A stretch of DNA of 64,000 bases from a bacterium. Its GTDB lineage: Bacteria; Electryoneota; Electryoneia; Electryoneales; Electryoneaceae. Shown in pieces: positions 2,754-41,682 of the stretch. The notes beneath the pieces are model-generated. The model was not told the origin of the DNA and did not search any database. It was given only the letters and a program-made list of their open reading frames with translations. A program made the translations under genes and the position numbers. The DNA lies in assembly GCA_963669175.1 (NCBI GenBank), contig OY769902.1, forward strand, positions 640,001-704,000. The letters run 5' to 3'. The stretch's first letter is position 1; each line of letters begins with the position of its first letter.

Positions 2754-5700
2754 ATGTTTCGATCTACTCGTCTTGTTTTTTGCTTGCCTGTTGTTCTGCT
2801 GTTGTTCGTTGTCAGCTCAGCTCATGTGTACCTTGGTCCCGAGAACGAAAAATACCTGGCGCACTCCCACAAGGGCGAACACAATCCTCATCCCGGCTGG
2901 CATATCGATGAACTGGATGAGGCGGGCGGTCCGGATGCTGGCGGATATGTCTATCGTGACAGCAACGAAGAAGACGGCCCCGTGTATGCCTGGGTGGATA
3001 TATCCGCAACAGGAACCGCCATTACCGACATGGATGATGATGACTATTCCGATCCGATTGAGTTGCCGTGGACGTTCTCCTTTTACGGCAACGATTACAC
3101 GGAAGTCTATATCTGCTCCAACGGCTTCCTGAGGTTCGGTCTGGGCAGCGAAGAATATGACAACACCGCTCTGCCGGACTACGAAGCGCCCAACAACCTG
3201 CTGGCCTTTTTCTGGAACGATCTGGACCCGTCTTCCGGCGGAACGATTTATTACGGTGTCGATAACCAGAACCGTTGGATCTGCCAGTTTGACCAGATAC
3301 GTGAATTTGACGACAGCGGCGCTATCACCGCCGAAGTGATTCTGGATGAATCCGGCGCCATCCTTTTCCAGTACGAAGCATTGGAAAACGGCATTGACAT
3401 TGGCGGCGAGACCATCGGTATCGAAAACGAGTTCGGCGCCATCGGATTAACGGTTTCCCTTGACGATTCCCCGGAAAGTTACCCCTACGCATCACTGGCC
3501 GTTCTTCTGGAACAGCTTGAGTTTGACGCTACTCTGTCCGGCACGATAACCGACACTGAAAACGGCCGTGGAGTTGCCGGGGTAACGGTTGAATTCGGAA
3601 ACCTCAGCACTGTTTCCGATGTCAATGGGAATTACAGCTTAGACGAAATCTGGTCCGGGGTGTACGATGTGCATGTGTACGCCAACGGCTATTTCGACAC
3701 TCGCGCCGAAGATGTTGTGCTGACAACAGGCGACAACACATACAATTACATGTTGACTCCCTCCGGAATGCCTTCGGGGTTTGTCGGGTACTGGACTTTT
3801 GACGATCAGCAGGATCTCCTGCATGCGGATGTGGGGAATGATCTCGTACTGGTCGGCGCCCACACCGCAATTGACGGCCCGGATGATGACGACAACGCAG
3901 TGACCATTACAGAAGGCAACTTCTACAGGTGTTATCATGACATCGCACCTAACGGCGCGTATGGAGAACCGGAGTGGGTCAATCAGTTTACCATCGTAAT
4001 GGACATCCGTATTCCCGAACTGGATGACTGGTACTGCATCTACCAAACCAACTACGAAAACAGCAATGACGGCGACTGCTTTGTCCATACGTCTGGCGCG
4101 GTCGGGGTGGCTGCAACGGGCTATTCCGATTACAACCTGGTTCCCGGGGAATGGTATCGTCTGGCGATATCGGCCAACCTGGGTGTGAGCTACAATTACT
4201 ACCTGGACGGCCGTTTGCTGCAAATCGGCGGAGCGCAGAGTTATGAAGGACGTTTTGCTTTATACCCGGCAAACGACGCTAACCAGGTTTTGTTCTTCGC
4301 CGACAACAATGATGAAGACGGTCCGATTGATGTGGCGCAAATCCAACTCTATGACCGTGACCTGACAGCTTCTGAAATCGCTACCCTCGGGGGATACGGG
4401 CATGAGTTTGAAAGCCCGGAAATTTACTATATGGACCCTTTCCTCCAAACCCCCACGCCCAACTCCATATATGTTTGCTGGCATTCGTCCAGCTCAACAG
4501 AATCCATCCTGAACTATGGGCTCGACGAAACGCTTGATATGCAGGCCACCGGAGACCATCACGTTTTCAATGAAGCCACCATATGGCACTGGGTGAAGCT
4601 GGAAAATCTCGATCCCCTGACAACCTATTATTACCGTGTCATCAGTGGCGCGGACTCTTCCGAAATCCACGCTTTCACAACCCAGCAGGTGGATGGTAAC
4701 GACCAGCGACCTGTCCGGTTTGTCGTGTACAGCGATCCCCAAACCAGTGAGGGTCATCATGCTGTCATCGAGGCGATGGAAGAGAAACTGGTTGAACTGT
4801 ACGGCGAGGATTTTCACGAAGATGTCCAACTGATCATGACCACGGGGGATATTGTCAACACCGGAAGCGATCTGGCGCAGTATACGTCCCTGTTTTTCAA
4901 CAACAATGCCCCTGTCACCGATAATCTGCCACTCATGAACGCGATTGGCAATCATGAAGCGGAAGCGGAAATTTATTATGACTATATGCTGTACGATGAT
5001 TTCGCCGGCCCTGAAGGTGAAGTGTATTATTCATTCTGGGTCGGAAACGCCCTTTATATTGTACTGAACAGCAATATTCAGGGTGACACCCAGATAACTT
5101 GGCTGGAGAACCTTCTGGATGATGCGGAAGCCGATCCTGCTCTCGATTGGGTGTTTGTTTTCCTGCACCACCCGGGGCGCAGCGAAACCTGGCCGGATGG
5201 AAATACGGCGTGGACACAGAATGAAGTCATCCCGCTGCTGACACAACATCCGAAGGTGGAGATGCTGTGTTATGGACATACGCATTCCTATGAACGTGGC
5301 GCGCCCATTGACGGTACTGTTCGCCTGATGTGTTTCGGCGGTGGCGGTGGACATCTGGATCGCTGGCGTGATTATGAAAACCAGACTGATTATCCTGAAA
5401 TTCACCGTGCACACGACTATTACGGATACGCCATTTTCGAGATCAATCCCACGACAGAATCCTATTCCGCCACTGCCTATACATTGGGAAACGAAGATCA
5501 TCCGCTGGAAAACACTGTCATGGATAGCTGGGTCCGTGACCGTACAGCAGCGCCGCCTTTGCAGCCTCAAAGTTATTTCCCGGACAGCCAGGGTGATATC
5601 AATACTGTTTTAACCGCTTCCCCCTGCATTTCCATGTTTCCCGTGATGAGTTCGCAGTTCCAGGTAAGCACATCTCAGGAGGACTGGTCAAATCCGGTTG

Positions 5701-7415: not shown

Positions 7416-7423
7416 TACAACTG

Positions 7424-10405: not shown

Positions 10406-10412
10406 ATTGTTG

Positions 10413-10808: not shown

Positions 10809-11121
10809 TAGATATAGAGCCCTATTACAATCACGGGGGATTAACAGGACGGATCGTGTACGGGTCGAAATGACCGGATTCAGGCGATTGGTGGAATGAT
10901 TCACCGGGATTATTGTCACTGTGGGAGTATCGGTAGAGATATTATTGTGTAATTACGTTGTAACCAGATTGGTTTCTGGCATTCATGTACGGGCCGCATG
11001 TGATTGAAATACACTTCAGGAAAACGCTGATATTGTCTCTTTTCCGATACTTTTTGTTTGACGATAAAACTTGAATTGCCTGTCTTCCCGGGTATCCTGC
11101 CGAACGTCCGGGGGAGATCAC

Positions 11122-14100
11122 ATGAGTGCCTTGAGAAAAAGCTGGCCTATCCTGGCATTTTGCCTTGCTTTATCCCAACACACCTTCGCTGCATCGTTAG
11201 GCGCTGATACAACGCCGACACTTGCAACCCTTGAAGTCACCCAGCTTCAACAGACAAACAACGGTTTTCGCATATCACTTGCCCTGCCGGAAATAGAGCT
11301 TGAAACACTGGGGTCAAGCCAGTTGCAACGGTTCACATTACAAGGCTCCGGCTTGTGGACAGAAGAAGGATTGCCTCCAGTACCCATGGTGGGCAGCCTT
11401 TTTCGCCTGCCACCGTCCGGTGGGGTTCATGTGGAAGTGCTTCACGCTGAATACGAAACCCTGACCGACATTAATTACGCTGCTTTCCATGAAAGCCAGA
11501 ACCATGACGAGCTGGATGAATGCCTGAACCGTGAAGATCGCTGGTTCCCCGGCCCGCTGGCAGAAGTGGGAGATCCGGCTATCTTTCACGATTTCCGTGT
11601 CGCAAACCTGCTGACTTTCCCCATCCAGGTCAACCCGGGACGCAATGAAGCACGCGTATATCACACCCTGGACCTGGAAATCAGTTTTGAAGGATCGGAT
11701 ACCCGGAACACACTTCCTGCCCCGCCAACACGCCTGAGTAAAGCCATGCTGCCGATGTACCGTACGCTGCTGGATTGGAACGAAGACGAGCTGGACGAAT
11801 TTGAATTGTATCGTGGCGGTGTCCAGGTTGTAATGCGCAACGATCTTGACCTGTTCGCTATCATGGAGGAGTGGTTCCAGTGGAAACGTGAAAGAGGCTG
11901 GAAATTTGAACTGCTGACGAATGATGGTATTGTGTGGAGCTGCTTTGGGGTTCATGATGAGCTGGCGGCACGCTATGCAGAAGAACCGTTCGATTATATC
12001 GTTGTTGTCGGCGATGACCAGGGCGATTTCCCTGCCCCCCCAGGGTCAAATATCGGTAATGGCGCTGGCGACTATAGGTTTTCCTGTATAGCCGGGGATG
12101 ATGACTTGGTGGATGTGGGAGTGGGACGCATTTCTATCATGTATCACCAGGATGCGTCTGTCGTGTTTGATAAACTGGTATCCTATGAAAAAAATCCCTT
12201 TATGGCTGATTCAAGCTGGTATCTGCGTGGACTGGTGCATAACTCGTACGATAGCAACTCCCGTTTTGAATGCGATGAAGTCCTGCTCCAAATCCGTAAC
12301 CAACTGCTGAATCTTGGCTATACGACCGTTGATACATTGCTGGGGATAACAGGGGAAGAGGCTATTTCGTATCTGGAAGATGGTGTTTCATTCTATTCCC
12401 ATGTTGGCTATTGCACGGATGGTTTGAACGGGAATGAGGTTTACAATATTCAAACCGGGGCAATGTGGCCGGTTGTTAGTACGTTCTTTGCCGGGGCCGG
12501 CACCTGGTCACAAGAAACAAGCACTACAGAAATCTGGTTACGCGCAGAAAACAATGGTTCACCGATAGGCGCAATAGGCGCTTTCGGCACGGCAACCTAT
12601 GCTGCAATGATAGATTATCAGAATCTCCTGCTTGCGGGGGAAATGTACTCAGCGACTGTGTTGTGCAATCCTGCACTGGGAGATATGAACTTGTTCGCAG
12701 ATGTTTCATTGTACAACAATTATTATGCATACGAGAACTACGAATTCACCCAACACATCAACTGGCATAACCTGATGGGTGATCCGACCACCTGGATCTG
12801 GACCGGAATCCCGCAACGTCTTACTGTCACAGAAATCACAACACTTCCCCTGGGTATGCAGGTAATTGCCTGTGATGTGTTCGATGCGGAAGGCGAACCT
12901 GTCGCAGATGCCTGGGTAACCCTGGTGAAAGACGACAACGGTGACTCCACCCAGGTGATGGCGGAAACGGACGCGAACGGACACGCGGAGCTGTTTGTTG
13001 ATCTGCAGCACGATGGCGATGCCACATTAACTGTGTCCGGCCAGAATTGTTACCCGGTTCAACAGACTATCGTTGTTGTCTCCAATCATGCCGGATGTGT
13101 GGTTGATACTGTCCAGGTGTATGAAAATGGCGCCTTTGGATCATCCGGGGATGGAGACGGGGTAATAGAGAATGGCGAGACCATCGCGCTGCAGGTAAGT
13201 TGCCGAAATTTGAGCGAAGATACGGTTGAAGAATTGATCCTCTGGGCGGAATCGCCGGATGATTATATCGATGCAGTGACTGGCGCTATTGAATACACTG
13301 AAATCGAGCCCGGTGAAGCCGGTTTTGGTAACGGGATTGTCCTGGTAGAGATCGACAGCCGAACCCCGGATTCATGGCTGGGTGAGCTTCAGTTTATGCT
13401 CGTAAGCGATGATACGGTTTACATTGACTATATGCTGCATATCTCCGCGCCCCTGCCGGTGGTGCCGGGATTTGTCAGATCAGAAGACACTGGCACATGT
13501 ACGATTATAGTTCCGATCACCAATACCGGCGGAGGTGATTTGGCGGGTGGGACAATCATGCTCGCATCACGAAGCAACCAGGTAAATATTGTACAGGGTG
13601 AAGCCATGATGCCCGCGCTGGCCCCCGGGATGACAACAGAAATTGAGTTTGAAATTTCAGCCAGCGATAATCGGATCGGCGGTTATCCGGCAGATATGAC
13701 GGTAATCATTTCAAGCGAAGATAACGCCCTCTTCCACACACCATTCACCCTGTACCTGGGCGAAGCGGAAACCACGGACCCAACGGGGCCGGACCGGTAC
13801 GGTTACCTTGCCTTTGACAACACGGATATATCGTACCATGATTATGCACCGGACTATGAATGGATCGAAATAGACCCGGATGCAGACGACATTGATTTCA
13901 TCGGCACATCCCTTGAATTATCAGATACCGGTGAAAATCTGGATGACGCCGCCCTGGTGGAATTACCATTTGATGTCTTCTACTACGGGGCAAACTTCGA
14001 TGAAATCACCGTAACCACCAACGGTATGGCTGCGTTCGGTGACCAGCGACGGTTGACTTTCGCCAAAAACCGTATCATCCCCGACCCATTAGGACCACAA

Positions 14101-16158: not shown

Positions 16159-16218
16159 TAACTATTCTATTCAGGTTCTCATTGCTGTAAAATGCTTGTC
16201 ATCATAAGGATGAACGAC

Positions 16219-26377: not shown

Positions 26378-29300
26378 ATGAAGTGGAAAATCAGAGCTTT
26401 ATGCCTGGTATTGATCTGTTGTTCGTTAGCGTCAGGCAACCTCTCTCCCGTTAACCCGATACTATCGGACGATTGCACTGCGCTATGTGTACAACAGTGC
26501 CTGCATACTTCTGATGGGATATCCCTTTCTCTTGCTTTCGAAACCCCGAAAATTGAAACCGTAGATGAATCCAATTCGTTGCAACTTGCCTCTTTCCCCG
26601 GTTCCGGAATGCGTCTGTACCCCGGAGAACCGGCAACTCCCATGATTGGCAGACTTTTTCGCCTGCCCCCAAGTGGTGGTGTAATGGTCGAGGTGCTCGA
26701 CGCCGAATACCAGACGTATACAGATGTTGATTATGCCGCCTGCGTTGACGAACTCGATGAGCTTGAGTTTGGCGCATGTTCTTCTGTTGAAGACGCCTGG
26801 TTTCCCGGACCGCTCGTTGAAGTTGGCGATCCAGCCATTTTTCACGATTTCCGTGTCGCAAACCTGCTTACCAACCCGGTGCAGGTTAATCCGGCGCGCC
26901 AGGAAGTCCGTGTATATAGCCACATGAACCTGGCCGTGAGATACAATTCCCATGACGACCGGAACACCCTGGCGCATCACCCCGCGAAACTGAGCTCCAC
27001 TTTTCTTCCCTGGTATCGAGATTTTCTGGATTGGGACGATGACGAACTGGATGAATATGAATTCTACCAGGGCAATGTGGTTGTGGTCATGCGGGATGAT
27101 GACGTTTTGTGGGAAAGCCTGGCAGATTGGATCGCATGGAAACGTCAGAAAGGGTGGAAACTGGATTTCCTGACCGATTCTGATGTGGACAACTGGACAA
27201 GCGATGGTATTATAAGTGAATTGATCCAGCGTTATGAAGCAGCCGAGGAGAAGTTTGATTTTGTTGTCATCATTGGCGATGATACCGGATCGTTTACAGT
27301 CCCGGCCTCGTCAGGATACGGGTCCGGATCCGGTGACCTGTTTTATACAATGCTGGCAGGTAACGATTACCTGGTTGACGTCGCAATCGGTCGAATGACT
27401 GTTGAAACATTTCAGCACGTGGTGATAGCAAGCCACAAAATCATCACTTATGAATGCGATATGTACCTGGAAGAACCTGTTTGGTACACGCGAGCCATGC
27501 TGAGTCGTTCGGACACGCACGAAGGCATTACAAAAGTCATGACCCTGAGGTACTGGAGATCATGGTTGAATGAAATAGGCTATACCCAGGTCGATACAAG
27601 TTGGGGCCTGGGAAATACCGCTGCGCTTGCAGCGATAAATGATGGTGTAAGTGTATACAGTCACCGTGGATATATTGGTTCAGGCATTCAAGCCAATCAG
27701 GTTTCAGCTCTGTCTAATGATTACATGCTGCCTGTCGTTATTGATTTAACCTGCTACACGGGAAACTGGTCTGGCGACACGGGAATCAATGAGACCTGGT
27801 TTCGGACCGGCGCCATCAATTCGCCTCGTGCGGGCATTGGCGCTATCGGCATGGCAACCGCCGCCAATCGTCCAAGTATGTTGAATCCTATCAGTGGAGG
27901 CGCTGCCTATTCGTTACTGGTTCAACGCAACCCTGAAATGGGTCTGGTCTGGATGGGAGGCGAGATCAACTTGTGGCAAAATCAACGGCTTAATAACCCC
28001 GCTGTTTCACAAGATGAACAGCAATGGTGTAACCTGATGGGTGATCCGACAACCTGGTTGTGGACCGCGGCTCCGGAATCTCTGTTTGTAAGCACACCTG
28101 ACCTGATCAACCTGGGAACACGCCAGGTGAATGTGCAGGTCACGGACAGCGAGAATAATCCAGTACCGAACGCGTGGGTTACTTTTTACAAGGTTGATGA
28201 AAACGAAGATGTTGTTTATTCCACACTTGCGGACGCTGATGGCTTCGCTTATTTACAAACCGAGTGTGACTATCCCGGCGAGAGCATCATTACTGTCAGC
28301 GCACAGAATTATCTTCCTTCCCAGACACCAGTTACTGTTTCTCTTGCCAACGATAATGTGAGTTTCGATGACTATGAGATCGTTGATGACGGGAATTACC
28401 AGACCATTGGCAATGGAGATGGTATTCCCCAGAATGGTGAAACGATCGGGCTACGGTTGAAACTGGCCTGTAATTCCGATATCACGCAAACGGGGATTTT
28501 TGTGACCGGTTCTTCGGCCGATCCATGTATTGAAGCTGTAACTGGTACGGTTGCCATACAATCAATGGAAGCCGGAGAATCGGAATGGGCGGATGAAGTT
28601 ATCCTGGTCGAACTGGCCGACATGATCGAGGATCACTGGATTGTGCATGTCGATCTTGAATGCACTGCCGACCAAAGCTTTCACACAACCACATGCAGCT
28701 TCCCGATTCGAGCGCCTCAATACGGTATTGTTACGACAACCATGAGCGACATTGAACCGGGCGGAAACGGCACACTATTCATCATGATTCAGAACACCGG
28801 AGGACACGAAGCGTCAACCATATCAGGTGTGATTTCAGCGTATGGCAACATGTTCCATTCATCTCAGGCCTACCGCCCTTTTGGAACCCTGAGCCCCGGA
28901 GAGACAAACAGTACAAGCTTTAGCATCACGGCTGCGCAGGACGCCCTTCCCGGCGCTCTTGTCCCCTGCCTGTTAACCTGACCTCAGGTAATGGCCACAC
29001 ATTTGACCTGGAATTCTCTGTCAACTTCGGTTCCGTTGACACTTCAGACGTTACCGGGCCAGACCAATACGGATATATCGCCATAGAGAATACGGACATT
29101 ATTCCCATCGATTCTCTTGTCCCGGTCTTTGATTGGATTGAAATCAATCCGGACTTGCAGGATGCCCAGTTTGAGGGAACATTGATAGACGTGGAAGACC
29201 CGGTAGAGAATGATGATGATGCCGCTGTTATTGAATTGCCATTTCCGATTCAGTATTACGGAAACACGTTCAATACCATGACAATCAGCACCAATGGATA

Positions 29301-31395
29301 TGTTGCGATGGGCAGCCAGACAGATCTTTCGCTGCCACGAAACTGGATCATTCCGTCACCCCTGGGACCAAACAATATGATAGCGCCCTATTGGGATGAG
29401 TTACGAACTGTAGGTGATGCAAACATTTCTTATTATTACGACAGTGACACGGGCGCCCTGATTGTCGAGTTTTTCAGGATGCGAGCCCATGAACCAGAAT
29501 TCGCGAACACGTTCCAGGTAATCTTTTACGATACAGCATTGCATCCTACGCCAACCGGCGACAACATGTTTGTCTTTCAGTATAATAGCTGCAACCATTC
29601 GGAAGGCGGCATGCGCTATGATATGCCATACTGGACTACAGGTATCGAAAACGGCGCCCAATCGGACGGCCTTCAGCTTGCTTTCCTGAATATTCTTCAC
29701 CCCAGCGTCACCAGTATCGGGGAAGGTCGTGCGATACTCTTTACCGCCGCCATGCACACAACGGATCGGAATCTCACCGGCACGGTCGTATCCCTGGCTG
29801 ATTCTTCTCCCATTCAGGAAGCGCTTGTTTACACCAATCCACTCAATGTCGTGGTGACTGATTCTACAGGATACTTCTGTTTACCGCTCCAAACCTCTTT
29901 GCCTATGCATGTCTATTTTGAAGCGGATTGTTTTAACCCGGTTTCACGCTTGCTCGACCCGCTTCAGGACGAAATAACCAATGTAACCGTTGCCCTGTCA
30001 AGGCCCGAATTTATTCTCAACACCGAAACCCTGATCGACACATTGTCCGAAAATGAAACAGCTTCGTTCACTGTTTCTGTTTCCAATCCCGGTGACGGCA
30101 TACTGCGATCAGCGCTTACATTTGATGTTCATCAACCGACCATGGCGCTTGAAAAACAGGGCCACCGGTGGATAAGGGAACTGGATGAAACATGGACACG
30201 CAGACCCGGATTCCAACTCTCTACTGAATCTTCCGGGTACCTGGGAATCACGCATAACGGCAGCAATTTCTGGATAAGTGGCACAAATCAGGACAACCCG
30301 AATAATGCCCACCTGTTATACCTGTACACTTCCAATGGTGAGCTGATTCGTTCCTGCAATCAACCTGTGCCGGAGGCAAACCGATCTGCCCTGGGCATGC
30401 AGGATCTGGCCTGGGAAGATGGCTACCTGTATGGCGCCGATGGCAATGTTCTTTACGAGATGGAGCTGAATAACGGCAACTTTACGGTTACCAACCAACT
30501 GGCGGTTCCTGTAAGTCCCGTAACTTATCTCGCCGTTGATTCGTACCGGGGACTATTCTGGTTGGGGAGTACACATACGTATATCACAGGTGTGAACCTG
30601 AACGGGGCTGTTGAATATTCAATTTTTAACGGTTCGTACAGTTTCGCCGGTGGTGACCTGCTACCATCTGCACAACTAAACGAAAACCTGGCGCTGCTAT
30701 CCTGGAACATGGCAACCCATCAGTACCGGGCTATTGAAGTTGTTCCCGAATCAGGAGAGGTTTTGCCCCTGGCAGATTTCACTGGTGGCCTGCTGGACAA
30801 CAGACCTACCGGCGCTTGTATTACCCATGATATGCAATTGTCTGCCTGGATTTTTGCTACAATTGCCCATTTTGAAGAGGTTGACAGCGTTCTCTTATGG
30901 GAAATCGGGCCTTATGACGACTGGGTTTCACTGCCTGAAGCCTACATTGAAGTTGATCCCGGCGAAACATTTGATTTTCCAGTTTCTGCATACAGCTCGG
31001 TGTTACCCCCAATGACGTACACCCTGGACCTGGTTTTCGACCACAACGCCTGCTCTGACAATAGCAACCGGGTGATGATCCAAATGGTGATTATTGATTC
31101 TGATACACCCGAAGAACTTCACGACAGACCATTAGAGTGGGCGCTGGATGCAATCTGGCCCAACCCGTTTAACCCGACAACGCAAATCCGGTATGGATTA
31201 AAAGAAACAACAACTGTTGATGTACAGATATTTGATATCCTGGGGCGTCAGGTAGCTATATTAGCTCATGAGACTCAACAGGCCGGGTGGTACACGATTC
31301 CATTCACGGCAAGCAATCTGTCCAGCGGCTTATACTTTGTACAAATTAACGCAGGCCCTCTTCACGAAACCCGGAAACTGGTATTGTTGAAATAA
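26378..31395 (+). pseudogene. Peptidase C25 family multidomain protein, copy 4, split by a 1-nt frameshift at ~28977 (real lesion or assembly error)
   Basis: ORFs 26357-28981 and 29155-31395 are the two halves of one gene. The second frame is open from 28978 (LTSGNGHTFDLEFSVNFG) and aligns with copy 5 (LTSENGHMYDLFFSVNFG). Confidence 0.85.
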
Positions 31396-31503
31396 CTGGA
31401 GTTGCTTTTTATCATTCCATTTAACTTGTATACTTTTTCTACTTGTCAAGATTTTCCGGTGTTTCTGAAGGAAGAAACGCTTGTTATATTAAGGACTGAT
31501 CTT

Positions 31504-34500
31504 GTGAAGAGATTGCTCCTGTTTATCGTTCTGGCTGTTTTCAGCCTACAGGTCACCCGTGGTAACATCACCTGGGAGAACCTGCCACCAGAAGCGGCCA
31601 ATATCCTGCATGTGCAGCAATGCACCCGCACTGCTGACGGGCTGACCTTATCCCTTTCCTTCGAAGCGCCGGTATTTGAAACGATAGGCGAATCGGGATC
31701 GCTGCAATTGGCGTCCTTTGCCGGAAAAGGCATGCGCAATGACCCTGGCGAACCGGCCACACCCACGATAGGACGCTTGTTTCGTCTGCCTCCGACCGGG
31801 GGTGTTACTGTGGAAGTCCTTGATTTCGAGTTCGAGACCCTGACCGGCGTGGATTACGCTGCCTGCAGCAGCGAGCTGGATGAAATCGAGTATGGTTCCT
31901 GTGCAAACCGGGACGCCTGGTTTCCGGAAGCTCTTGTTGAGGTCAGTGATCCTGCCATTTTCCACGATTTCCGTGTCGCAAGCCTGCTGACCAACCCGGT
32001 TCAGGTCAACCCGGCGCGGAATGAAGTGCGCGTTTACAGCCGGATGAATGTCGCCATCCGTTTTGATGGCAATGACAACCGTAACTCTATTCCCACCCAA
32101 CCAGTAAAACTCAGTTCCACTTTCCTACCCTGGTACCGTGAGTTCCTCGACTGGGACGATAACGAGCTTGATGAATTCGAGTTCTACGAGGGTAATGTGG
32201 TCGTTGTCATGCGTGACGACGAGGTTCTTTGGGAAGCGATGGAAGAGTGGATTGCCTGGAAACGGCAAAAGGGATGGAAGCTGGATTTTCTGACGGATGC
32301 GGGATTCGAAAACTGGACTGCTGACGATATTATTACCGAACTCTGCTATCGATACGAGACTGCGGAAGAAAAATTCGATATCGTTGTGATCGTGGGTGAT
32401 GATACCGGTTCTTTCCCGGTGCCGGCTTCATCCGGATCAGGTGTGGGCCATGGTGATATTCATTACGCACGACTTGCAGGTGATGACTGGCTGGTGGATG
32501 TGGCAGTGGGGCGTATGTCTGTGGAATCGTTGCAGGAGGTCGTTTTGGTGACCTCCAAGACAATCAACTATGAGCTATACCCCTTTATGGACGATACTGG
32601 CTGGTACCAACGTGCGTCGCTGTACCGTTCAGATTCTCATGCCGGGATATCAAAAATCATGACACTGCGTTACTGGAGACGGTTGCTATTTGAGAATGGT
32701 TATGCACAAGTGGACACCAACTGGAATCACGGACACACTCCAATCATTGAAGCAATTAACAATGGAGTTAGCGTATACAGTCATCGGGGCTATCTTGGTA
32801 CAGGACTACAGATTACCGATGTCAACAACCTTTCAAATGATTTCATGTTACCCGCTGTTGTTGATCTGACCTGCTATACCGGGAACTGGTCGAACAGCCT
32901 GGGTATCAACGAGTCCTGGTTGCGGGCCGGTACTGTTCAAACTCCTACCGGTGGTATTGGCGCGATAGGCATGACAACGGCTGCCAACTGTCCAAACTTT
33001 AATAACTGTATAAGTGGTGGAACCGCCCATACACTGTTGGTACACCACAATCCTGAATTTGGCAGAATGTGGCTTGGCGCGCAAATCAACCTCTGGCAGA
33101 ACTTTCATCTCCACGATCCGACTTACATGAACAACGAGCAACAGTGGTGCAACCTGATGGGAGACCCGACAACCTGGTTGTGGACCGCTGTCCCGGAATC
33201 TCTGAACCTGGATGTACAGAACCAGCTCTACCTGGGTGAAAACCAGGTTATAGCGAATGTCACAGATAATTCTGGTGATCCTGTATCTGAAGCATGGGTA
33301 ACATTTTACAAGGCTAATAATAATGAAGATGTTGTTTATTCGACACAAACAGACGCCAACGGCGATGCCATCCTTCAGACATTATGCCGATTCACGGGAT
33401 CTGGCACTATTACCGCCAGCAAGCGAAACTGTATTCCTGCAACAGTTCAGGCCACGATCAGTAATTCTGAAGATGTGGTCAGTTTTGAGGATTTCCTGAT
33501 TATTGATGACGGGAGCAATGGTACCCAGGGAAACGGAGACGGGATTCCTCAAAATGGTGAAACTGTCGGGTTGCGCCTGAAACTGGTCTGTCAATCTGGT
33601 ATTGCTCAGACGGGAATCATTGTTTCAGGTTCCTCGGAAGATCGTGGTGTTACCAGTGTAACCGGGAACATTTTAAGAGGCATGATGAATCCGGGAGAGG
33701 CGGTCTGGGAGACCGATGTACTATTGGTAGAACTGTCCGGTACTATCACCGACCACTGGATAATTCATATTGACCTGAATTTCAGTTCAGACCAGAGCCA
33801 CCATGTGACAACATGCAGTTTTCCCGTAAGGTCTCCCCAATACGGCCTTGTGTTTGCCGAAATGTCTGACATCAGTCCGGGGGACGAGGGGGAAATAACA
33901 ATAACCATACAAAATACCGGTGGTCACTTCGCCGATAATGCGATGGGGACGTTGTACAGTTTACAGGGAATGATCTTGGGTAACAATGAATCCATGATTC
34001 TGGGTGATATCGCTGTGGGTGATACTGCCACAGCAGTATTCTCCATTTCTTCTGAAGAGACAGTTTTGCCGGGTATCATGGTACCGGTCCTGTTAGCTTT
34101 GACCAGCGAAAATGGACACATGTATGACCTGTTCTTTTCTGTCAACTTCGGCGGGGTTGACGCGACTGACGTAACTGGACCTGACCAGTACGGCTATATC
34201 GCAGTAGAGAATACGGATATCGTTCCCGGCGATTCCCTTGTTCCGGATTACAACTGGATAGAAATCAACCCCGACGCCCCTGATCCCGACTTTCAGGGAA
34301 CCCTGCTTGACCTGGAAGACCTATCTGAGAATGATGACGAAGCTATATCCATCCCACTCCCTTTCACGATTCAGTATTACGGCAATTCCTTTGATACGTT
34401 GACTGTCAGCACAAACGGTTATGTTGCCATGGGTAACCAGGCGGATCTTTCACTCGCTCGTAACTGGACAATCCCATCCCCCCTTGGCCCCAACAACATG

Positions 34501-36516
34501 ATTGCCCCTTATTGGGACGAACTGCAAACCAATGGCGATGCCGCGATTGTAACATATCACGACGATGGCTCCGGCATCTTCATCGTCGAGTTTTACAGGA
34601 TGCGTCATCACAATTATAACTATGAAAGTACCTTCGAACTGCTCTTTTATGACACCGAACACTATCCCACATTTACAAACGACAACCGTTTCCTGTTTCA
34701 GTATGGTTTGTGCGAGCATTCGACCGGAGGTATGAGTTATGATATCCCCTTTTGGACCACCGGTATTGAAAATGGAAACCAGACTGACGGACTGCAACTG
34801 GCTTACCGGAATACCATGAATCCTACTATTGCCAGGATTGACAGCGGACGCGCCATTTTATTTTCTGTCGCCTTTCCGCAGGTGCATGTCGTCGCATCAG
34901 GCCAGGTCGTTACTGCAGCAGACAACCAGCCAGTGCCCAACGCCCTGGTCTATACAGAACCATTCAATTCCGTAGTTGCCGATTCCATGGGATTCTTTAA
35001 CCTTGATCTATATTCCTATTTGTCTATTGATATTTTTGTAGAAAAGGAATGTTTTAATCTGCAAGTACATCACTTGATACCGTATGAGGATGATATTCAA
35101 AATATTACCATTGCGCTGACCCAACCATCTTTCAGCCTGGACAGGCACACAATCATGGACACGCTGGCCAACAATGAAACAGCATCGCACTCGGTATTCG
35201 TTGAAAATGCAGGTGACGGGACATTGACTTCTTCGCTCACGTTCGAAGTGTGTGAGCCTGAAATCCATGCAGCAAAGGTATCTCCCCGCTGGATCAGCGA
35301 GCTTGACGAACAATGGACGCGCATTCCCGGCTTCCAACTATCTACAGAGGAGTTTAACCACTACGGAATCACGTACGATGGCAACAACTTCTGGATCGCT
35401 GGCGCTAACAGCGCAAACCCGGATGCTCCCAATTTGCTGTATAAGTATTCCGTTGACGGCACCATGATCTCTTCCTGTCCGCAACCGGTGCCGGAGGATC
35501 AGCGTTCCTATCTGGGTATGCGGAACCTGACATGGGAAGACGGCTGCCTGTACGGCGTTGACAACTATATTCTATACGAGATGACGCCTGTGGATGATAC
35601 CATGCAGGTAAACTTCCAGGTGGATGTTCCCTTACCGCGAACAAGATTCCTGGCCGTGGACTCCTTCCGTGGCCTCTTCTGGATGAAGGACATCACCTCC
35701 AACATGTATGGCATTAATCTGAATGGGAACATCGAATATGCTTTTGAAGATATCCCTTATGATATCTATGGTGGCGATATGCTGCGATACTCAAACTGCA
35801 ATAACAATCTTGGATTATTAACCTGGTATCACATTTCCCATGACATACGATTACTGGAGTTTAATCCTGATACCGAGGTATTTCAGAACCTCACCGACAC
35901 CAGCCTTGGCGCCCTGGAAGAATCGCCAGGGGGCGCATGTTTCTTCTGTAACGGCCAACAATCCTCCTGGAATTTTGCCACGATCGCCAGTTTCGAAGAC
36001 GCGGACAGTGTACTGATATGGGAAATTGAGCCGTTCGACGAGTGGCTTTACCTGCCGGAATCGTACATCGAACTTCCCCCCGGAGGGCTGCAAGAAATCC
36101 CCATACAACTCAGCAGCATGTTTTTGCCGCCTGGAACATACAGCCTTGACCTGGTTTTCGATTATAATGCCTGTAGCGAGGTTTCAAACCGTGTGTTAAT
36201 CCGGATGACTGTTTCATCGACATCGTCTCCGGAAGAGCCCACGGGAAGACCCCTGGAGTGGAAACTGGACGCGATCTGGCCCAATCCATTTAATCCTACG
36301 GCACAGATACGCTATGGAATAAAAGAAGCAACTCGTGTTGACATACGAGTTTATGATATCCTTGGACGTGAAGTGACAGTCCTTGCGCATGAATCGCAGG
36401 CAGCCGGTTGGCATACCGTCCCCTTTACAGCTCCTGAGCTTGCCAGCGGGGTATATTTTTTGAGAATTCACGCTGGTCCGTTGCGTGAAACCAGAAAGCT
36501 TATTTTATTAAAGTAG
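31504..36516 (+). CDS. Peptidase C25 family multidomain protein, copy 5, T9SS-type CTD
   Basis: AAGGA at 31491 before GTG 31504 (signal peptide MKRLLLFIVLAVFSL); SHRGY, DLTCYTGNW, NLMGDP. The ORF track start 31402 is probably too early. Confidence 0.88.
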   Translation: MKRLLLFIVLAVFSLQVTRGNITWENLPPEAANILHVQQCTRTADGLTLSLSFEAPVFETIGESGSLQLASFAGKGMRNDPGEPATPTIGRLFRLPPTGGVTVEVLDFEFETLTGVDYAACSSELDEIEYGSCANRDAWFPEALVEVSDPAIFHDFRVASLLTNPVQVNPARNEVRVYSRMNVAIRFDGNDNRNSIPTQPVKLSSTFLPWYREFLDWDDNELDEFEFYEGNVVVVMRDDEVLWEAMEEWIAWKRQKGWKLDFLTDAGFENWTADDIITELCYRYETAEEKFDIVVIVGDDTGSFPVPASSGSGVGHGDIHYARLAGDDWLVDVAVGRMSVESLQEVVLVTSKTINYELYPFMDDTGWYQRASLYRSDSHAGISKIMTLRYWRRLLFENGYAQVDTNWNHGHTPIIEAINNGVSVYSHRGYLGTGLQITDVNNLSNDFMLPAVVDLTCYTGNWSNSLGINESWLRAGTVQTPTGGIGAIGMTTAANCPNFNNCISGGTAHTLLVHHNPEFGRMWLGAQINLWQNFHLHDPTYMNNEQQWCNLMGDPTTWLWTAVPESLNLDVQNQLYLGENQVIANVTDNSGDPVSEAWVTFYKANNNEDVVYSTQTDANGDAILQTLCRFTGSGTITASKRNCIPATVQATISNSEDVVSFEDFLIIDDGSNGTQGNGDGIPQNGETVGLRLKLVCQSGIAQTGIIVSGSSEDRGVTSVTGNILRGMMNPGEAVWETDVLLVELSGTITDHWIIHIDLNFSSDQSHHVTTCSFPVRSPQYGLVFAEMSDISPGDEGEITITIQNTGGHFADNAMGTLYSLQGMILGNNESMILGDIAVGDTATAVFSISSEETVLPGIMVPVLLALTSENGHMYDLFFSVNFGGVDATDVTGPDQYGYIAVENTDIVPGDSLVPDYNWIEINPDAPDPDFQGTLLDLEDLSENDDEAISIPLPFTIQYYGNSFDTLTVSTNGYVAMGNQADLSLARNWTIPSPLGPNNMIAPYWDELQTNGDAAIVTYHDDGSGIFIVEFYRMRHHNYNYESTFELLFYDTEHYPTFTNDNRFLFQYGLCEHSTGGMSYDIPFWTTGIENGNQTDGLQLAYRNTMNPTIARIDSGRAILFSVAFPQVHVVASGQVVTAADNQPVPNALVYTEPFNSVVADSMGFFNLDLYSYLSIDIFVEKECFNLQVHHLIPYEDDIQNITIALTQPSFSLDRHTIMDTLANNETASHSVFVENAGDGTLTSSLTFEVCEPEIHAAKVSPRWISELDEQWTRIPGFQLSTEEFNHYGITYDGNNFWIAGANSANPDAPNLLYKYSVDGTMISSCPQPVPEDQRSYLGMRNLTWEDGCLYGVDNYILYEMTPVDDTMQVNFQVDVPLPRTRFLAVDSFRGLFWMKDITSNMYGINLNGNIEYAFEDIPYDIYGGDMLRYSNCNNNLGLLTWYHISHDIRLLEFNPDTEVFQNLTDTSLGALEESPGGACFFCNGQQSSWNFATIASFEDADSVLIWEIEPFDEWLYLPESYIELPPGGLQEIPIQLSSMFLPPGTYSLDLVFDYNACSEVSNRVLIRMTVSSTSSPEEPTGRPLEWKLDAIWPNPFNPTAQIRYGIKEATRVDIRVYDILGREVTVLAHESQAAGWHTVPFTAPELASGVYFLRIHAGPLRETRKLILLK

Positions 36517-36648: not shown

Positions 36649-39600
36649 ATGAACCGGAACAGCTTGATAGTGTGCACGTTGCTTCTTGTTTTGCCTTGCA
36701 TTTGCCTGGGTTCAATTCCGGAAGTATTATCTCAGCAGGCGCCGACGATTATTCATGTTGAGCAGTGCCGTCAACATCCCGACGGCTTCGACCTGCTTCT
36801 GTCTTTCGAGTCACCTTCCTTTGAATCTGTGGAAAACCATCCCGGCCTGGTTGTTCCCACCTTTTCCGGCGCCGGCCTGCATCTCGAATCCGGTCAACCG
36901 GTTACACCACAAGCAGGACGCCTGTTTCGTCTTCCGCCAACCGGCAGCGCCAGTGTGGAAATAATCTCCGCAGAATACACGACGATTTCAGATGTTCAGA
37001 TCGCTCATTGCCGCAATGAACTTGATGAAGAAGATATCACGTTTGGCCCTGGGGCAAATCTGCAGGACGCCTGGTATCCCGGCCCTGTTGCTGAAGTGGG
37101 TTCACCGGCCCTGTTTCATGACTTTCGCGTTGCCAACCTGCTGACCCACCCCGTGCAAGTGAATCCTGCCCGCAACGAAATGCGGGTATACAATCGTATG
37201 GAAATCGCCATCCGTTTTGACGGGCAGGACAACCGGAATTCTTTACCTCAACAGCCATCCAAAATCAGCGCCACCTTTCTTCCCTTGTACCGTGATTTCC
37301 TGGATTGGGATGACAGCGAACTGGACGAGTATCTGTACTACCAGGGCAATGTAGTGGTTGTCGCACAGAATGATGACAACCTGATGGAAACCCTGCAACC
37401 CTGGATAGAATGGAAACGTCAGAAAGGATGGAAGCTGGAATTCCTGACAGACGATGATGTGGCTGGCTGGACCTACACCAATATAATCAACGAGTTACAA
37501 TCAAGATATAACCTTGCAGACGAGAAGTTTGATTTTGTCGTGGTTGTCGGCGACGACCAGGGGGCGTTCCCTGTCCCGGCCTCAACCGGTGCAATCTATG
37601 GCGCCGGTGATTTGCATTATGGACGATTAGCCGGCGATGATTACCTGGTAGACGCTGCCGTTGGAAGAATAACTGTGGAGGATATTTCACAGGTCGCTGC
37701 TGCCACAAGCAAAATCATTGGCTACGAGAGCGATCCCTTTATGGATGATACGGACTGGTTTCAGCATGCAGCGCTGTACAAGTCTGATGATACTCACAGT
37801 GGAACATCCAAGGTTTTAACTTTACGCTACTGGTTGCATTTGCTTCGTCAGGTTGGCTATACCCAGGTGGACACGTCATGGGAACAGGATAATATCTTCA
37901 TGACGGGGTTACTTGAGGATGGTGTCTCGGTTTTCAGCCATCGTGGTTATCTCGGATATGGTCTCCAGGCAAACCATATCAGTGTTCTGGAAAATGACTA
38001 TAAACTACCGATGGTTGTAGATCTGACCTGTATGACCGGCAACTGGTCCCAGGGAACCGGCACCAATGAAGTCTGGTTCCGTGCCGGGACTGTTGATGTT
38101 CCTACCGGCGCGATAGGGGCCATTGGTATGGCCACAACTTCCAACCGGCCCGACATGAACAACCCCATAAGCGGTGGAGCCGCACAGGCTTTGCTCGGGT
38201 ATCGCATCCCGGAAATCGGCATGACATGGCTGGGAGCGCAGGTAAACCTGTGGCAGAATTACGATGACGTTCAGACAGCCACTTCCAGGCAAAACCAGGC
38301 ATGGTGCAACCTGATGGGCGATCCAACCACCTGGGCCTGGACTGCTGTCCCGCAGGAATTGACTATCAGTTGTGATCAAACAATGTACGTTGGAGACAAT
38401 ACAGTAACTGTAAGTGTTTCGGATGAAAATGGCGAACCAGTAAGCGGGGCCTGGGTAACATATTATAAAGTTGACGATTACGAAGAAATCGTGGAAACAA
38501 AATTATCTCAGTCCGACGGAACTGTAGTTCTGTATACCCCGAATCGTTTCACTGGAACTGGTGTCGTAACAGCAAGCAAACAGCATTATGTACCAGTTCA
38601 ACAGCAGATAGCTATCAGCACCCCAACCGGGCGGATCGGGTATGCGGATATGGCCATTGTGGATAATGGCCAGGGGGAAACGGTCGGTAATGGCGATGGT
38701 GTGGCGCAGGCCGGAGAAACAATTGGCATCAGGCTCGCCCTGAAAAACTTCGGACAAATTGCCCAATCCAGTATTGTTGTTTCCGGAGCATCCGACGACC
38801 CCATGATTCAGGCTGTCAGTGGAGCCATCTCACGAGAGTCCCTGATCCCCGGTCAACAAGCTTGGGATAACGATATCATCATTGTTCAGCTTGCACCCAA
38901 CATTCAGGACGAATGGCTTGTGCATCTTGACCTGCTGTTCAGCACTGACCAGGGCGACTATGAGGATGAATGTGAAATCCTGGTTCGTGCGCCGAAATTT
39001 GAAATCCATTCTGTCACGACTCAAAACATGAGGCCCGGACAGGCAGGATCGGTTATAGCCTATATCCAGAATATTGGCGGAGCCGACGCCGGAAACGCAC
39101 ATGCCACACTGATATCGTCAAGCAATTTCGTCATAACAAATGGCGCCAGTGTTCCTGTGGGAGATATTGGTATTGATGGCTGGGCCTGTGCAACATTTGA
39201 TGTAAGTCTAAGCCCGGTTGCTGCACATGGTATAGAGGTTGATGCCAGCATAGTGATTGTTGACGAAAACACACATACATCCACAGCATTATTTACCCTG
39301 CCCATTGGGGAACGGGAAAGCTGGGATCCTGTTGGCCCTGATGGCTATGGGTATCTTGCTATTGAAAACTGCGACTCTGTTCATGAAAACCTGGCGGTGG
39401 AATTTAACTGGCTTGAGATTAATCCATTTGCAGATGATCCGGTGTATGCCGGCACGATATTGGACCTGGAAGACCTTGCCGAAAACGATGATGATGCAGT
39501 GTCGCTGCCACTTCCTTTTCCTGTCAGCTATTACGGTGAAGTGTTTGATACGATAACCGTAACGGCAAACGGCTATGTCGCCCTCGGCAACCAGGCTGAC

Positions 39601-41682
39601 CTCTCTCTCGCACGCAACTGGAGTATTCCTTCCCCTTTGGGTCCGAACAACATGATTGCGCCCTATTGGGATGAGTTTCATACCACTGGCGATGCGGTAG
39701 TCTGCACCTATCACCATGAGCAGAATGGATTGTTTATCGTGGAATTCTACCATATGCAACATTACAACAACTCGACGTGCACCTTTGAAATTCTTTTCCA
39801 GGATGTAGAGATGTACCCAACGCCATCCATGGACAATAACATCATTTTCCAATATGGTGAATGTACTCACACGGCAAACAGTGGAATTCAGTATGACAAC
39901 CCTTACTGGACCACAGGTATTGAAAACGGCGACCAGACAGATGGACTGCAGTTGGCTTTCTGGAACACTCTCAGCCCGGGCATGACAAGTATTGAAGAAG
40001 GGCGGGCTATCCTGTTTACCACCCAGGTATTCTACATGATGAGCCGGGTGTACGGACGGGTTTATGAAGCCCATACCGGAGAACCTGTTGCCGGGGCCGT
40101 AATCAGTTGCTACGACGGCTTTATCTCGACAACATCAGATATAGAAGGTGAATACATCCTGGACCAGGTTGTGCCTGGTGAAGTTACTTTCAGCGTGGAA
40201 ACAGACTGCTACACCGATCTTGAGAGCATGATTGTTTATGTCCCGGTGATGGATACGGTCCGGTTGGATTTTGAAATGCTTGCGCCCGATTTTCAAATAA
40301 GCAACACCATGATCCGTGATACCCTGGATGTCAGAGAGGATGCAACCCATGATATTGTGTTGGCCAACGAAGGCGAAGGTGAATTGGTATTCAATATTGC
40401 CCTGGACTGGCCGGGTAACGACGCAAAACTATCGTCTGGCGGGACAAGAAATACCTCTGAGTCCGGCGAATTGGATGAATTGTGGGAAGAACTGTACTCT
40501 TTCGAACTTTTAACATCTGAAAACAGGTATCGTGGATTGACCTTTGATGGATGGCATTTCTGGATAGCGGGATCAAACAATTACGATATTAATGGTCCAA
40601 ACCTACTGTACTGTTATTCGGCCAACGGCAACCATATCGGCACGTTTGAACAGCCGGTGCCTGAAGGGGAACGTACGGCTGAGGGATTTTATGAACTGGC
40701 CTGGGATGGTCGTTATCTCTATGGAGCGGATGCTGGTGTATTGTACCAGATGCTTCCCGAGGGAAACACGGTCAGAAGAGTGAATTCATTTGAAATTGAA
40801 GTGAACCCATCCCATGTGATGGTTGTTGATCCCAGGCAGGAGTGGTACTGGATCGGGGGCGGGAATAATCCCCTGATCGCAGTGAATCGTGAGGGCACTA
40901 TTGTCAGTGAAATAGAGCTGGAAGTTTATGTTCGGGGAGCTGCATGGCGTTCACATGACCCCGATGGATATTACATGTATCTCCTGGTACAACCTTTTAG
41001 CGAAAGCGAAGCCACCATTATAAAGATGAACCCTGATAACGGCGATACCATTCCTCTTGCCACTCTTACCGACCTGGGGCAGGGCGACTGGGATGTAAAG
41101 GGCGCCCTGTTTACTACTTTCTGGAACAATAGCAACGCAGCATTGGGAACCGTTGTCAGTAGCGAATCAGGAAATTATGTCGTTCTGTTTGATGCCGGCA
41201 TTTTCACCGATTGGGTTGTTGTAAGCAGTTCGAATGGGCGATTAAGTCCGGGCGAAACGACTACTATCGGTTTCCAGTTGATTAACGAAGAGCTGTTACC
41301 GGGTTCCTATAGTGTTCTCGCACAATTCGAACACAATGCGTGTACTGAAAATCCGGACGCAGTCTCTATCACCCTGGTCGTTCCCGGGGTAGATGCCGAA
41401 GAACCACCCGCCATGCCGCTTGATTGGGCATTTGACGGCGCCTGGCCAAACCCCTTCAACTCCAGCGTTCAGGTGGGATTTTCCCTGAAACAGGCTGTTC
41501 CTGTCCGGATTGCGATCTACAATATCCTGGGGCAGAAGGTTGCTGATCTGGCAAACGAGAGAATGGCGGCTGGCAAACACCTGATTCCTTTCCATGGCGA
41601 ACAGCTCGCGAGTGGTGTGTACTTCCTGCAACTGGATGCCGGCCCTTTACAGGAAACCAGAAAGCTGATACTGCTGCGTTAG
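36649..41682 (+). CDS. Peptidase C25 family multidomain protein, copy 6, T9SS-type CTD
   Basis: Signal peptide; SHRGY, DLTCMTGNW, NLMGDP, WPNPFNS...RKLILLR. Confidence 0.88.
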   Translation: MNRNSLIVCTLLLVLPCICLGSIPEVLSQQAPTIIHVEQCRQHPDGFDLLLSFESPSFESVENHPGLVVPTFSGAGLHLESGQPVTPQAGRLFRLPPTGSASVEIISAEYTTISDVQIAHCRNELDEEDITFGPGANLQDAWYPGPVAEVGSPALFHDFRVANLLTHPVQVNPARNEMRVYNRMEIAIRFDGQDNRNSLPQQPSKISATFLPLYRDFLDWDDSELDEYLYYQGNVVVVAQNDDNLMETLQPWIEWKRQKGWKLEFLTDDDVAGWTYTNIINELQSRYNLADEKFDFVVVVGDDQGAFPVPASTGAIYGAGDLHYGRLAGDDYLVDAAVGRITVEDISQVAAATSKIIGYESDPFMDDTDWFQHAALYKSDDTHSGTSKVLTLRYWLHLLRQVGYTQVDTSWEQDNIFMTGLLEDGVSVFSHRGYLGYGLQANHISVLENDYKLPMVVDLTCMTGNWSQGTGTNEVWFRAGTVDVPTGAIGAIGMATTSNRPDMNNPISGGAAQALLGYRIPEIGMTWLGAQVNLWQNYDDVQTATSRQNQAWCNLMGDPTTWAWTAVPQELTISCDQTMYVGDNTVTVSVSDENGEPVSGAWVTYYKVDDYEEIVETKLSQSDGTVVLYTPNRFTGTGVVTASKQHYVPVQQQIAISTPTGRIGYADMAIVDNGQGETVGNGDGVAQAGETIGIRLALKNFGQIAQSSIVVSGASDDPMIQAVSGAISRESLIPGQQAWDNDIIIVQLAPNIQDEWLVHLDLLFSTDQGDYEDECEILVRAPKFEIHSVTTQNMRPGQAGSVIAYIQNIGGADAGNAHATLISSSNFVITNGASVPVGDIGIDGWACATFDVSLSPVAAHGIEVDASIVIVDENTHTSTALFTLPIGERESWDPVGPDGYGYLAIENCDSVHENLAVEFNWLEINPFADDPVYAGTILDLEDLAENDDDAVSLPLPFPVSYYGEVFDTITVTANGYVALGNQADLSLARNWSIPSPLGPNNMIAPYWDEFHTTGDAVVCTYHHEQNGLFIVEFYHMQHYNNSTCTFEILFQDVEMYPTPSMDNNIIFQYGECTHTANSGIQYDNPYWTTGIENGDQTDGLQLAFWNTLSPGMTSIEEGRAILFTTQVFYMMSRVYGRVYEAHTGEPVAGAVISCYDGFISTTSDIEGEYILDQVVPGEVTFSVETDCYTDLESMIVYVPVMDTVRLDFEMLAPDFQISNTMIRDTLDVREDATHDIVLANEGEGELVFNIALDWPGNDAKLSSGGTRNTSESGELDELWEELYSFELLTSENRYRGLTFDGWHFWIAGSNNYDINGPNLLYCYSANGNHIGTFEQPVPEGERTAEGFYELAWDGRYLYGADAGVLYQMLPEGNTVRRVNSFEIEVNPSHVMVVDPRQEWYWIGGGNNPLIAVNREGTIVSEIELEVYVRGAAWRSHDPDGYYMYLLVQPFSESEATIIKMNPDNGDTIPLATLTDLGQGDWDVKGALFTTFWNNSNAALGTVVSSESGNYVVLFDAGIFTDWVVVSSSNGRLSPGETTTIGFQLINEELLPGSYSVLAQFEHNACTENPDAVSITLVVPGVDAEEPPAMPLDWAFDGAWPNPFNSSVQVGFSLKQAVPVRIAIYNILGQKVADLANERMAAGKHLIPFHGEQLASGVYFLQLDAGPLQETRKLILLR

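Follow-up and report, generated by a model that had tools for sequence, protein, structure and literature searches.

An acidic ELDE tetrapeptide marks type IX secretion cargo in an Electryoneota bacterium and is a candidate proteolytic maturation site

At their own pro/mature junctions, the proprotein convertases furin and kexin bear the same motif that they target in their substrates. Maturation of cargo of the type IX secretion system (T9SS) is known almost solely from Porphyromonas, where Arg- and Lys-specific gingipains trim other cargo. The gingipain zymogens RgpB and Kgp of Porphyromonas gingivalis belong to family C25 of clan CD, and the accessible part of one RgpB study (PMC4357240) describes two autoprocessing sites, Arg126 and Arg229, with Arg126 injected into the S1 pocket, Asp163 as the only functional group binding the P1 Arg, and S1 specificity set by three regions, alpha-1/L1 among them. 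Here we analyze a window of 64,000 nucleotides (nt) of Electryoneota DNA (positions 640,001 to 704,000 of contig OY769902.1, assembly GCA_963669175.1), in which six C25-like proteins and a metallophosphoesterase, all bearing a T9SS C-terminal domain (CTD), carry the tetrapeptide Glu-Leu-Asp-Glu (ELDE). In this uncultured, protein-degrading lineage of the Fibrobacteres-Chlorobi-Bacteroidetes (FCB) group, a strict acidic tetrapeptide appears to occupy places equivalent to the gingipain sites, in about a quarter of the ~336 cargo proteins, and complementary basic residues occur in the S1 pockets of two protease families. ELDE is a real, strongly non-random, lineage-restricted, protein-level motif of T9SS cargo. 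From the motif itself, its enrichment and positions, the exposure of two of its sites and the identities of pocket residues, we infer, with a probability of roughly 45%, that ELDE is a proteolytic maturation site, that the best-fitting cutters are subtilases with an Arg at subtilisin BPN' position 166 (Arg166), and that the window C25-like proteins are substrates or pseudo-enzymes.

The host genome is one 5.45-Mb contig, for which a greedy set of 4193 open reading frames (ORFs) was compiled; iterated hidden Markov model searching collected 336 of these (8%) as CTD proteins, and a TIGR04183 search gave a concordant 340 candidates, with all 150 scored places above the cut-off. The initial annotation had predicted that the motif would be enriched in CTD cargo, and genome-wide counting bears this out, with an approximately 10-fold higher density per residue than in other ORFs (4.73 vs 0.47 per 10,000 residues). 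The 336 CTD proteins contain 158 ELDE sites, spread over 86 of them, where composition alone predicts 7.9 and a second-order Markov model 45.7; the 3857 other ORFs contain 61, spread over 59 ORFs, where 32.0 are expected. Each of ten permutations of the same residues occurs 5-36 times among the CTD proteins, and the two most frequent, EDEL and LDEE, overlap ELDE. When tetrapeptides are ranked by the number of CTD proteins containing them, ELDE is ninth (86), outranked only by eight tetrapeptides that come from the CTD signal. Neither the permuted tetrapeptides nor the Markov estimate leaves room for a composition artefact. More than 20 codon combinations encode the 158 sites, the top four accounting for 84, with a moderate excess of CTG for Leu; these varied codons rule out a DNA-level origin, such as a recombination or restriction site, and point to selection at the protein level.

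After tandem ELDE copies, which occur in 8 proteins, were merged, 150 sites remained, distributed over 43 downstream sequence contexts (18 with at least two members and 25 singletons). A pure paralogy artefact is thereby ruled out. The signal thus comes from many unrelated proteins, though paralogous domain families give most of the raw count, which they inflate: 107 of the 150 merged sites sit in just 10 paralogous contexts. The residue before ELDE is mostly Asp, Asn, Gly or Ser, and the residue after it mostly Leu, Phe or Tyr. The 61 sites in non-CTD ORFs look helical and cytoplasmic, with a Lys, Arg or hydrophobic residue before the motif; a handful of these proteins may be secreted without a detected CTD.

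In the window, the C25-like paralogs, ~1,680 amino acids (aa) each, form a tandem array at 11071-41682. All six share one layout: a signal-peptide-like N terminus, Propeptide_C25, Peptidase_C25, an immunoglobulin (Ig)-like/CarboxypepD_reg region, a large C-terminal module rich in beta structure and, at the end, a type A sorting domain of the T9SS. The motif-bearing features, in window nt coordinates, are as follows.

2754-6467, + strand: CTD-bearing metallophosphoesterase, 1237 aa; ELDE at aa 53-56, nt 2910-2921.
11071-16125, + strand: C25-like copy 1, 1684 aa; ELDE at nt 11509, 11788 and 14902.
16192-21222, + strand: C25-like copy 2, 1676 aa; ELDE at nt 16591, ELDD at 16891, ELDQ at 19999.
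21318-26291, + strand: C25-like copy 3, 1657 aa; ELDE at nt 21687, 21981 and 25077.
26357-31395, + strand: C25-like copy 4, in two ORFs, 26357-28981 and 29155-31395; ELDE at nt 26750, 27044 and 30178.
31402-36516, + strand: C25-like copy 5, 1704 aa; ELDE at nt 31873, 32164 and 35299.
36649-41682, + strand: C25-like copy 6, 1677 aa; ELDE at nt 37018, 37318 and 40468.

The initial annotation had placed ELD followed by E, D or Q at the same three places in every C25-like copy, and all 18 sites were recovered, at homologous places: 16 ELDE, one ELDD (copy 2, site ii) and one ELDQ (copy 2, site iii). In copy 6 these places are aa 124 in the prodomain loop (site i), aa 224 at the pro/catalytic junction (site ii) and aa 1274 at the end of a disordered linker (site iii), after which come a beta-propeller-like domain and the CTD. 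In an alignment of the five paralogs with 36-50% identity to copy 1, the E-L-D columns are invariant at sites ii and iii and the flanks are variable. Also as described earlier, the phosphoesterase motif follows a His-rich segment; a signal peptide and this His-rich leader precede ELDE, and an 'xGGPDxxGY' (NIDO-like) module starts directly after it. The remark that ELDE was not seen in non-CTD proteins likewise stands for the window: none of the 24 non-CTD ORFs of the window, a count that leaves out the N-terminal half of split copy 4, carries ELD followed by E, D or Q.

In 38 of the 336 CTD proteins, the first 130 aa contain ELDE, preceded by a signal-like hydrophobic stretch and a short leader. 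The starts of cargo-versus-cargo BLAST alignments fall between -6 and +8 residues from ELDE at 75 of 156 sites, compared with 48.4 +/- 5.5 for random positions (maximum 63 in 200 draws). In four other architectures, homology to the copy 6 C-terminal module starts 2-5 residues before ELDE, and in relatives homology to the phosphoesterase mostly begins at query residues 44-57, which places its start at the motif. In four subtilases ELDE ends 19-29 aa upstream of the PF00082 envelope, and in one papain-like protease it lies at about the PF00112 start. The idea that the motif is exposed holds for two of the three C25 places. At site i, residues 124-128 of the copy 6 AlphaFold model have predicted local distance difference test (pLDDT) values <50 (model mean 88.9), and in a second copy 6 model (pLDDT 81.6) residues 1255-1277 are disordered (pLDDT <50), such that the site iii ELDE (1274-1277) closes a disordered linker directly before the first strand of the next domain. 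In contrast, site ii is modelled as a confident short helix. The reading of ELDE as a domain-junction motif fails for its largest context, in which 25 sites of the form 'ELDELPDDxTIYWRV' read as an inserted loop within fn3-like domains of giant proteins. The CTD proteins include giants of 5,177, 5,237, 10,354 and 11,593 aa made of repeated fn3-like modules.

In this genome and in relatives, an ELDE DNA pattern was counted genome-wide against a permuted EDLE pattern (G000 denotes this genome and other G numbers relative genomes). The ELDE/EDLE counts are 215/58 in this genome, 166/78 in a genome of the same genus, and 150/61, 84/32 and 113/55 in some further members of the family. A phylum-wide phenomenon was rejected, with a ratio of ~1:1 in most other genomes and small counts in other families. 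The excess in relatives may come partly from the C25 paralogs themselves. At C25 site ii, ELDE or ELDD occurs throughout the bacterial family, ELDE occurs at subtilase junctions in 11 family genomes, and ELDE before the GGPD module is kept in phosphoesterase orthologs of four other genera (G009, G015, G011 and G003); elsewhere in the phylum, the other families show no more than a hydrophobic-Asp or Asp-Glu core at these three places. The 'GGPDxxGY' module (window nt 2910-2990; relatives L161-L190), which matches a NIDO-like Pfam domain weakly, is mobile and widespread in the phylum, at the N terminus or inside proteins, and in it the Asp four residues before Gly-Gly is almost always conserved.

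Intact Arg166 subtilases are, judged by sequence, the leading candidates for the cutter and fit this role better than the C25 copies. The candidate subtilases L045 and L046 match PF00082 with 173-175 bits, and the Asp/His/Ser triad motifs of L046 align to those of BPN'. BPN' residue 6 aligns to W172 of L046, which places ELDE (L046 residues 166-169) over BPN' -1 to +3, that is, at the canonical mature N terminus. A Lys or Arg at BPN' position 166 favours P1 Glu. BPN' Gly166 aligns to an Arg in L046 with well-anchored flanks, and the available part of PMC3378952 describes Gly166 as the floor of S1, a position at which introducing a charge determines the charge preferred at P1. Among 30 loci of relatives, Arg166 was found in 14 of 15 ELDE-junction subtilases, across 11 genomes. 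Five other Arg166 subtilases have different junctions, four of which contain Asp or Glu, and the junctions of the 10 subtilases without Arg166 are mostly non-acidic (one ELDE, two ELDS). Both Arg166 subtilases of this genome (genome positions 2117820-2120939 and 1294034-1297171) carry ELDE. In the family genomes G002, G004 and G012 there is no Arg-type subtilase among the hits and no ELDE at the junctions examined, and the ELDE/EDLE counts are 41/49, 66/79 and 46/35. Many Arg166 subtilases (L064, L086, L087, L065, L089 and others) also have an Arg after the oxyanion Asn-Glu ('GNER'), a second basic residue near S1. Kexin/furin convertases and Plasmodium SUB1 offer a close parallel: secreted S8 proteases whose own junction motif marks many other secreted proteins, with an S1 charge complementary to the motif, a complementarity predicted from sequence in the present case. 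Comparable cuts are made at Arg/Lys in gingipain polyproteins and at dibasic sites in the proproteins of eukaryotes. ELDE differs in being acidic rather than dibasic, and specificity would come from the Arg at BPN' Gly166 rather than from an acidic S1.

In the arrangement that we favor, ELDE lies on exposed cargo segments, namely where short N-terminal leaders end, at the pro/mature junctions in three families of proteases, where disordered inter-domain linkers end, and on surface loops, and cargo would be trimmed and split into modules at ELDE after export. The cutters would be secreted subtilases with an intact Asp/His/Ser triad, an Arg at the bottom of S1 and ELDE at their own pro/mature junction, while the six C25-like proteins would be substrates, or pseudo-enzymes with a basic pocket. 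The gingipain-like proteins of the window seem to be carriers of the motif rather than its cutter. The alignments point to different scissile bonds: BPN' homology to cleavage after the first Glu, conservation of Asp-Glu in all Arg-type junctions to cleavage after the complete ELDE, and the RgpB extrapolation (below) to cleavage after EL or after ELD.

Several observations weigh against this arrangement. The motif is present in only 26% of the cargo, and 2 of the 19 subtilases of this genome have Arg166. Some family genomes have Arg-type subtilases but little ELDE excess (59/65, 83/64 and 76/65), and the correlation between Arg166 and the ELDE junction is confounded by the shared ancestry of the genomes. 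A cut in the fn3-like loop of the 25-site cluster would nick a folded domain. In copy 6, site ii is a short helix at residues 222-227 (block pLDDT ~88), not a loop. The hydrophobic-Asp core without the flanking Glu is found phylum-wide at the GGPD module, the subtilase junction and C25 site ii, such that part of the motif may be structural. Finally, the Asp of the subtilase motif aligns with BPN' residue 2, a Ca2+ ligand.

Comparison of the C25-like copies with RgpB and Kgp shows shared Peptidase_C25 and Propeptide_C25 domains, fold and T9SS CTD, and the proposed analogy with gingipain processing positions was upheld for sites i and ii, which correspond to the inhibitory-loop residue and the pro/mature junction. 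In phmmer alignments to 4ief and 1cvr, site i falls beside Arg126 and site ii across the extrapolated Arg229-Tyr230 bond. Glu127 of copy 6, the second Glu of site i, aligns with the 4ief_A residue taken as pro-Arg126, beside a 4-residue gap. The Arg229-Tyr230 bond extrapolates to between Leu225 and Asp226 in site ii from the prodomain and mature alignments alike, a placement good to a few residues only because ~10-18 unaligned residues are crossed. The third site, after the Ig-like region, recalls the cuts between gingipain catalytic and adhesin domains. The best Foldseek matches of the copy 6 model are 1cvr and 4ief, with target-normalised template modelling (TM) scores of 0.74-0.75 and, for prodomain chains, 0.74-0.78. 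A basic residue in S1, as the earlier hypothesis required, is also present: RgpB Asp163 aligns gap-free to Lys388 of copy 6, and Lys is found in copies 4 and 5 too. Copy 3 likewise has a Lys there, copy 1 a Cys and copy 2 an Arg, so that no copy retains the acidic S1 base; in most relatives the residue is Thr, Ser or Asn, with Thr in most of the family. The helix after Lys388 shows several identities to RgpB, including a Gly-Tyr-Thr 15-17 residues downstream, and the AlphaFold model places Lys388 at the start of this homologous helix. The motif itself is acidic here instead of Arg/Lys, and the family is expanded, with 19 related paralogs in the genome.

The active site also differs from that of the gingipains. 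The catalytic Cys (RgpB Cys244) is present in copies 3, 4, 5 and 6 and lacking in copies 1 and 2, and the position of the canonical His211 is occupied by Gly in copy 1 and by Tyr in the other five, which speaks against the initial view of copies 5 and 6 as conventional active proteases. RgpB Gly210-His211 aligns to Gly433-Tyr434 of copy 6 in two phmmer alignments (1cvr and 4ief), with moderate posterior confidence across this stretch, and the same register is seen in a MAFFT alignment with the genome's PorU ortholog and another C25 protein, both of which have the canonical Gly-His. Copies 1, 2, 4, 5 and 6 have a His where RgpB has Tyr208, three residues upstream and within a predicted strand (428-432), and copy 3 has none there. 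The key residues of copy 6 are encoded at nt 37810-37812 (Lys388), 37939-37941 (His431), 37948-37950 (Tyr434) and 38029-38031 (Cys461). A 46-sequence family alignment shows near-invariance of Cys461 and Arg432 and contains no invariant or near-invariant His. In a collection of 5.8 billion proteins, the 120 best homologs most often have Thr/Tyr/Cys at the S1-base, upstream-His and Cys positions (58), and Lys/His/Cys is seen only in copies 5 and 6 themselves. By the canonical criteria, no window copy reads as a competent Cys/His protease, though an unconventional active site may be present. The 'C25' proteins of Electryoneota, Cloacimonadota and Eisenbacteria mostly have Tyr, Trp or Phe at the canonical His and keep the Cys and the near-invariant Arg (copy 6 Arg432); hundreds of 'C25 family cysteine peptidase' annotations in these phyla are mostly without the canonical catalytic His. 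A separate C25 protein of this genome (L191, G000:C1:3259808-3263752) has the canonical Gly-His and Cys, an Arg in alignment with the Arg126 loop of RgpB, and an ELDE at aa 244-247, between Propeptide_C25 (71-214) and Peptidase_C25 (253-617). This protein may be an Arg-specific enzyme of the conventional kind on which the acidic junction motif persists.

The number of C25-like matches per relative ranges from 0 to 31, and those examined were 30 of 63 in five genomes and 30 of 37 in five others. Among these matches and the paralogs of this genome, Lys-type proteins were found only in G000, G001, G003, G006 and G007. The combination of Lys, upstream His and Cys was seen once in relatives, in the same-genus genome (30 of 63 examined), and not in the 30 of 37 examined elsewhere. 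Lys without the upstream His is more common, in 7 paralogs of this genome and 12 of the 30 examined in five relatives. The suggestion that Lys-type C25 proteins account for the motif is not supported, as there are ELDE junctions in genomes where Lys occurs in 0 of 30 examined C25 proteins (of 37). ELDE junctions are older than the Lys-type pocket: they are family-wide and include genomes in which no Lys-type protein was seen.

These data bear on the proposal that copies 4-6 are Asp/Glu-specific gingipain-like proteases that process themselves at the prodomain loop and junction and also act in trans in the maturation of inactive paralogs and other cargo. The gap-free replacement by Lys388 of Asp163, the sole group binding P1 Arg (PMC4357240, accessible part), the ELDE at the homologs of the inhibitory loop and pro/mature junction, and the match of the copy 6 fold to the RgpB catalytic domain and prodomain (TM 0.74-0.78) are all as such an enzyme would require. 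The combination of Lys, upstream His and Cys is, among the matches examined, confined to copies 4-6 and one same-genus protein, and those two genomes have the highest ELDE counts. Caspases (C14A), the acid-P1 members of clan CD, provide a further parallel in their fold, in the basic residue on alpha-1/L1 of copies 4-6, and in their xExD preference, which P4-P1 (Asp or Asn)-Glu-Leu-Asp resembles; the window copies are, however, not C14 by sequence, have their catalytic His out of place, and would have Glu at P1'. Two Peptidase_C14 (caspase/metacaspase) matches above the Pfam cut-off lie elsewhere in the genome (G000:C1:544141-544569 and 2647458-2648063). The Tyr at the canonical His211 of copies 4-6, with the nearby His at the Tyr208 position in a predicted strand, the lack of a conserved His in the family alignment, and the predominance of Thr/Tyr/Cys (58 of the 120 best homologs) all argue against catalysis by these copies. 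ELDE junctions also occur where none of the 30 examined C25 paralogs (of 37) has Lys, and L191, with Gly-His and an Arg at the Arg126 loop, nonetheless has ELDE between its pro and catalytic domains. We therefore consider an acid-specific C25 protease decidedly improbable.

Somewhat better placed, though still unlikely, is a mainly structural role, in which ELDE would be an N-terminal cap or metal-binding start of secreted domains, inherited and then sharpened in this lineage, with neither cleavage nor docking. This would account for the phylum-wide hydrophobic-Asp core before the GGPD module, a 'TDE' before the subtilase mature region in other families, xLD followed by D or E at C25 site ii of distant members, the confident helix at site ii, and the concentration of 107 of 150 merged sites in just 10 paralogous contexts. 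It does not sit well with an exact tetrapeptide common to at least 18 unrelated multi-member contexts of different folds, the disorder of sites i and iii in the models, the tandem repeats, or the parallel gain of the flanking Glu in several domain families within one bacterial family. Alternatively, ELDE could be a docking motif, with His-less C25 pseudo-proteases binding the ELDE of other cargo through the basic former S1 to build surface complexes, their own prodomain loop filling the pocket until displaced. Loss of the canonical His with retention of Cys461, Arg432 and the fold across the family, persistence of Lys388 without the upstream His (7 paralogs here, 12 of 30 examined in five relatives), and the placement of ELDE on disordered loops, linkers and fn3 surface loops are consistent with docking, and tandem ELDE would raise avidity. 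Yet docking leaves unexplained both the ELDE at canonical subtilase and papain-like pro/mature junctions and the covariation with Arg166, and some genomes with ELDE junctions yielded no Lys-type paralog among the matches examined; we regard docking as very doubtful. Equally doubtful is a composite scheme in which an ELDE code would be read by the charge-reversed S1 of two unrelated folds, the Arg166 subtilases and the Lys388/Arg432 C25-like proteins, with the expanded His-less paralogs serving as ELDE-docking pseudo-proteases that organise processed surface cargo.

If ELDE is indeed cleaved, the motif would provide a sequence rule for mature protein boundaries in this lineage, there would be a natural acid-specific subtilase, possibly alongside an acid-binding clan CD scaffold, and the secretome and the enzymes that process it would be an example of co-evolution. 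In the literature we found nothing tying ELDE to type IX secretion or to propeptide cleavage sites, nor, in the search listings, anything on acidic specificity of gingipain-like C25 peptidases. The available part of PMC9324843 does not mention gingipain, C25, T9SS, type IX, propeptide or caspase; its supplementary Table S1 may list these genes.

Additional features of the window genes complete the description. Peptidase_C25 scores 55-122 bits in copies 1, 2 and 6 versus a Pfam cut-off of 23, Propeptide_C25 scores likewise exceed their cut-off, and Peptidase_C25 is found at 23 places genome-wide, all above cut-off. The window proteins have the TIGR04183 type A sorting domain, and the genome's PorU ortholog scores 688.8 bits versus a cut-off of 420. 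Copy 4 has a frameshift near nt 28975-28985, and its two halves, when joined, match a full-length paralog; the break is either a pseudogene lesion or an assembly error. The nearest named relatives of the C25 genes are in Candidatus Electryonea clarkiae metagenome-assembled genomes (Electryoneota), at 39-45% identity. A Foldseek search with the copy 6 C-terminal module gave nothing beyond generic beta-propeller matches (TM <=0.36). A second low-confidence segment of copy 6, aa 1581-1587 (~nt 41389-41409), lies directly before the CTD, where a PorU-type sortase cut is expected.

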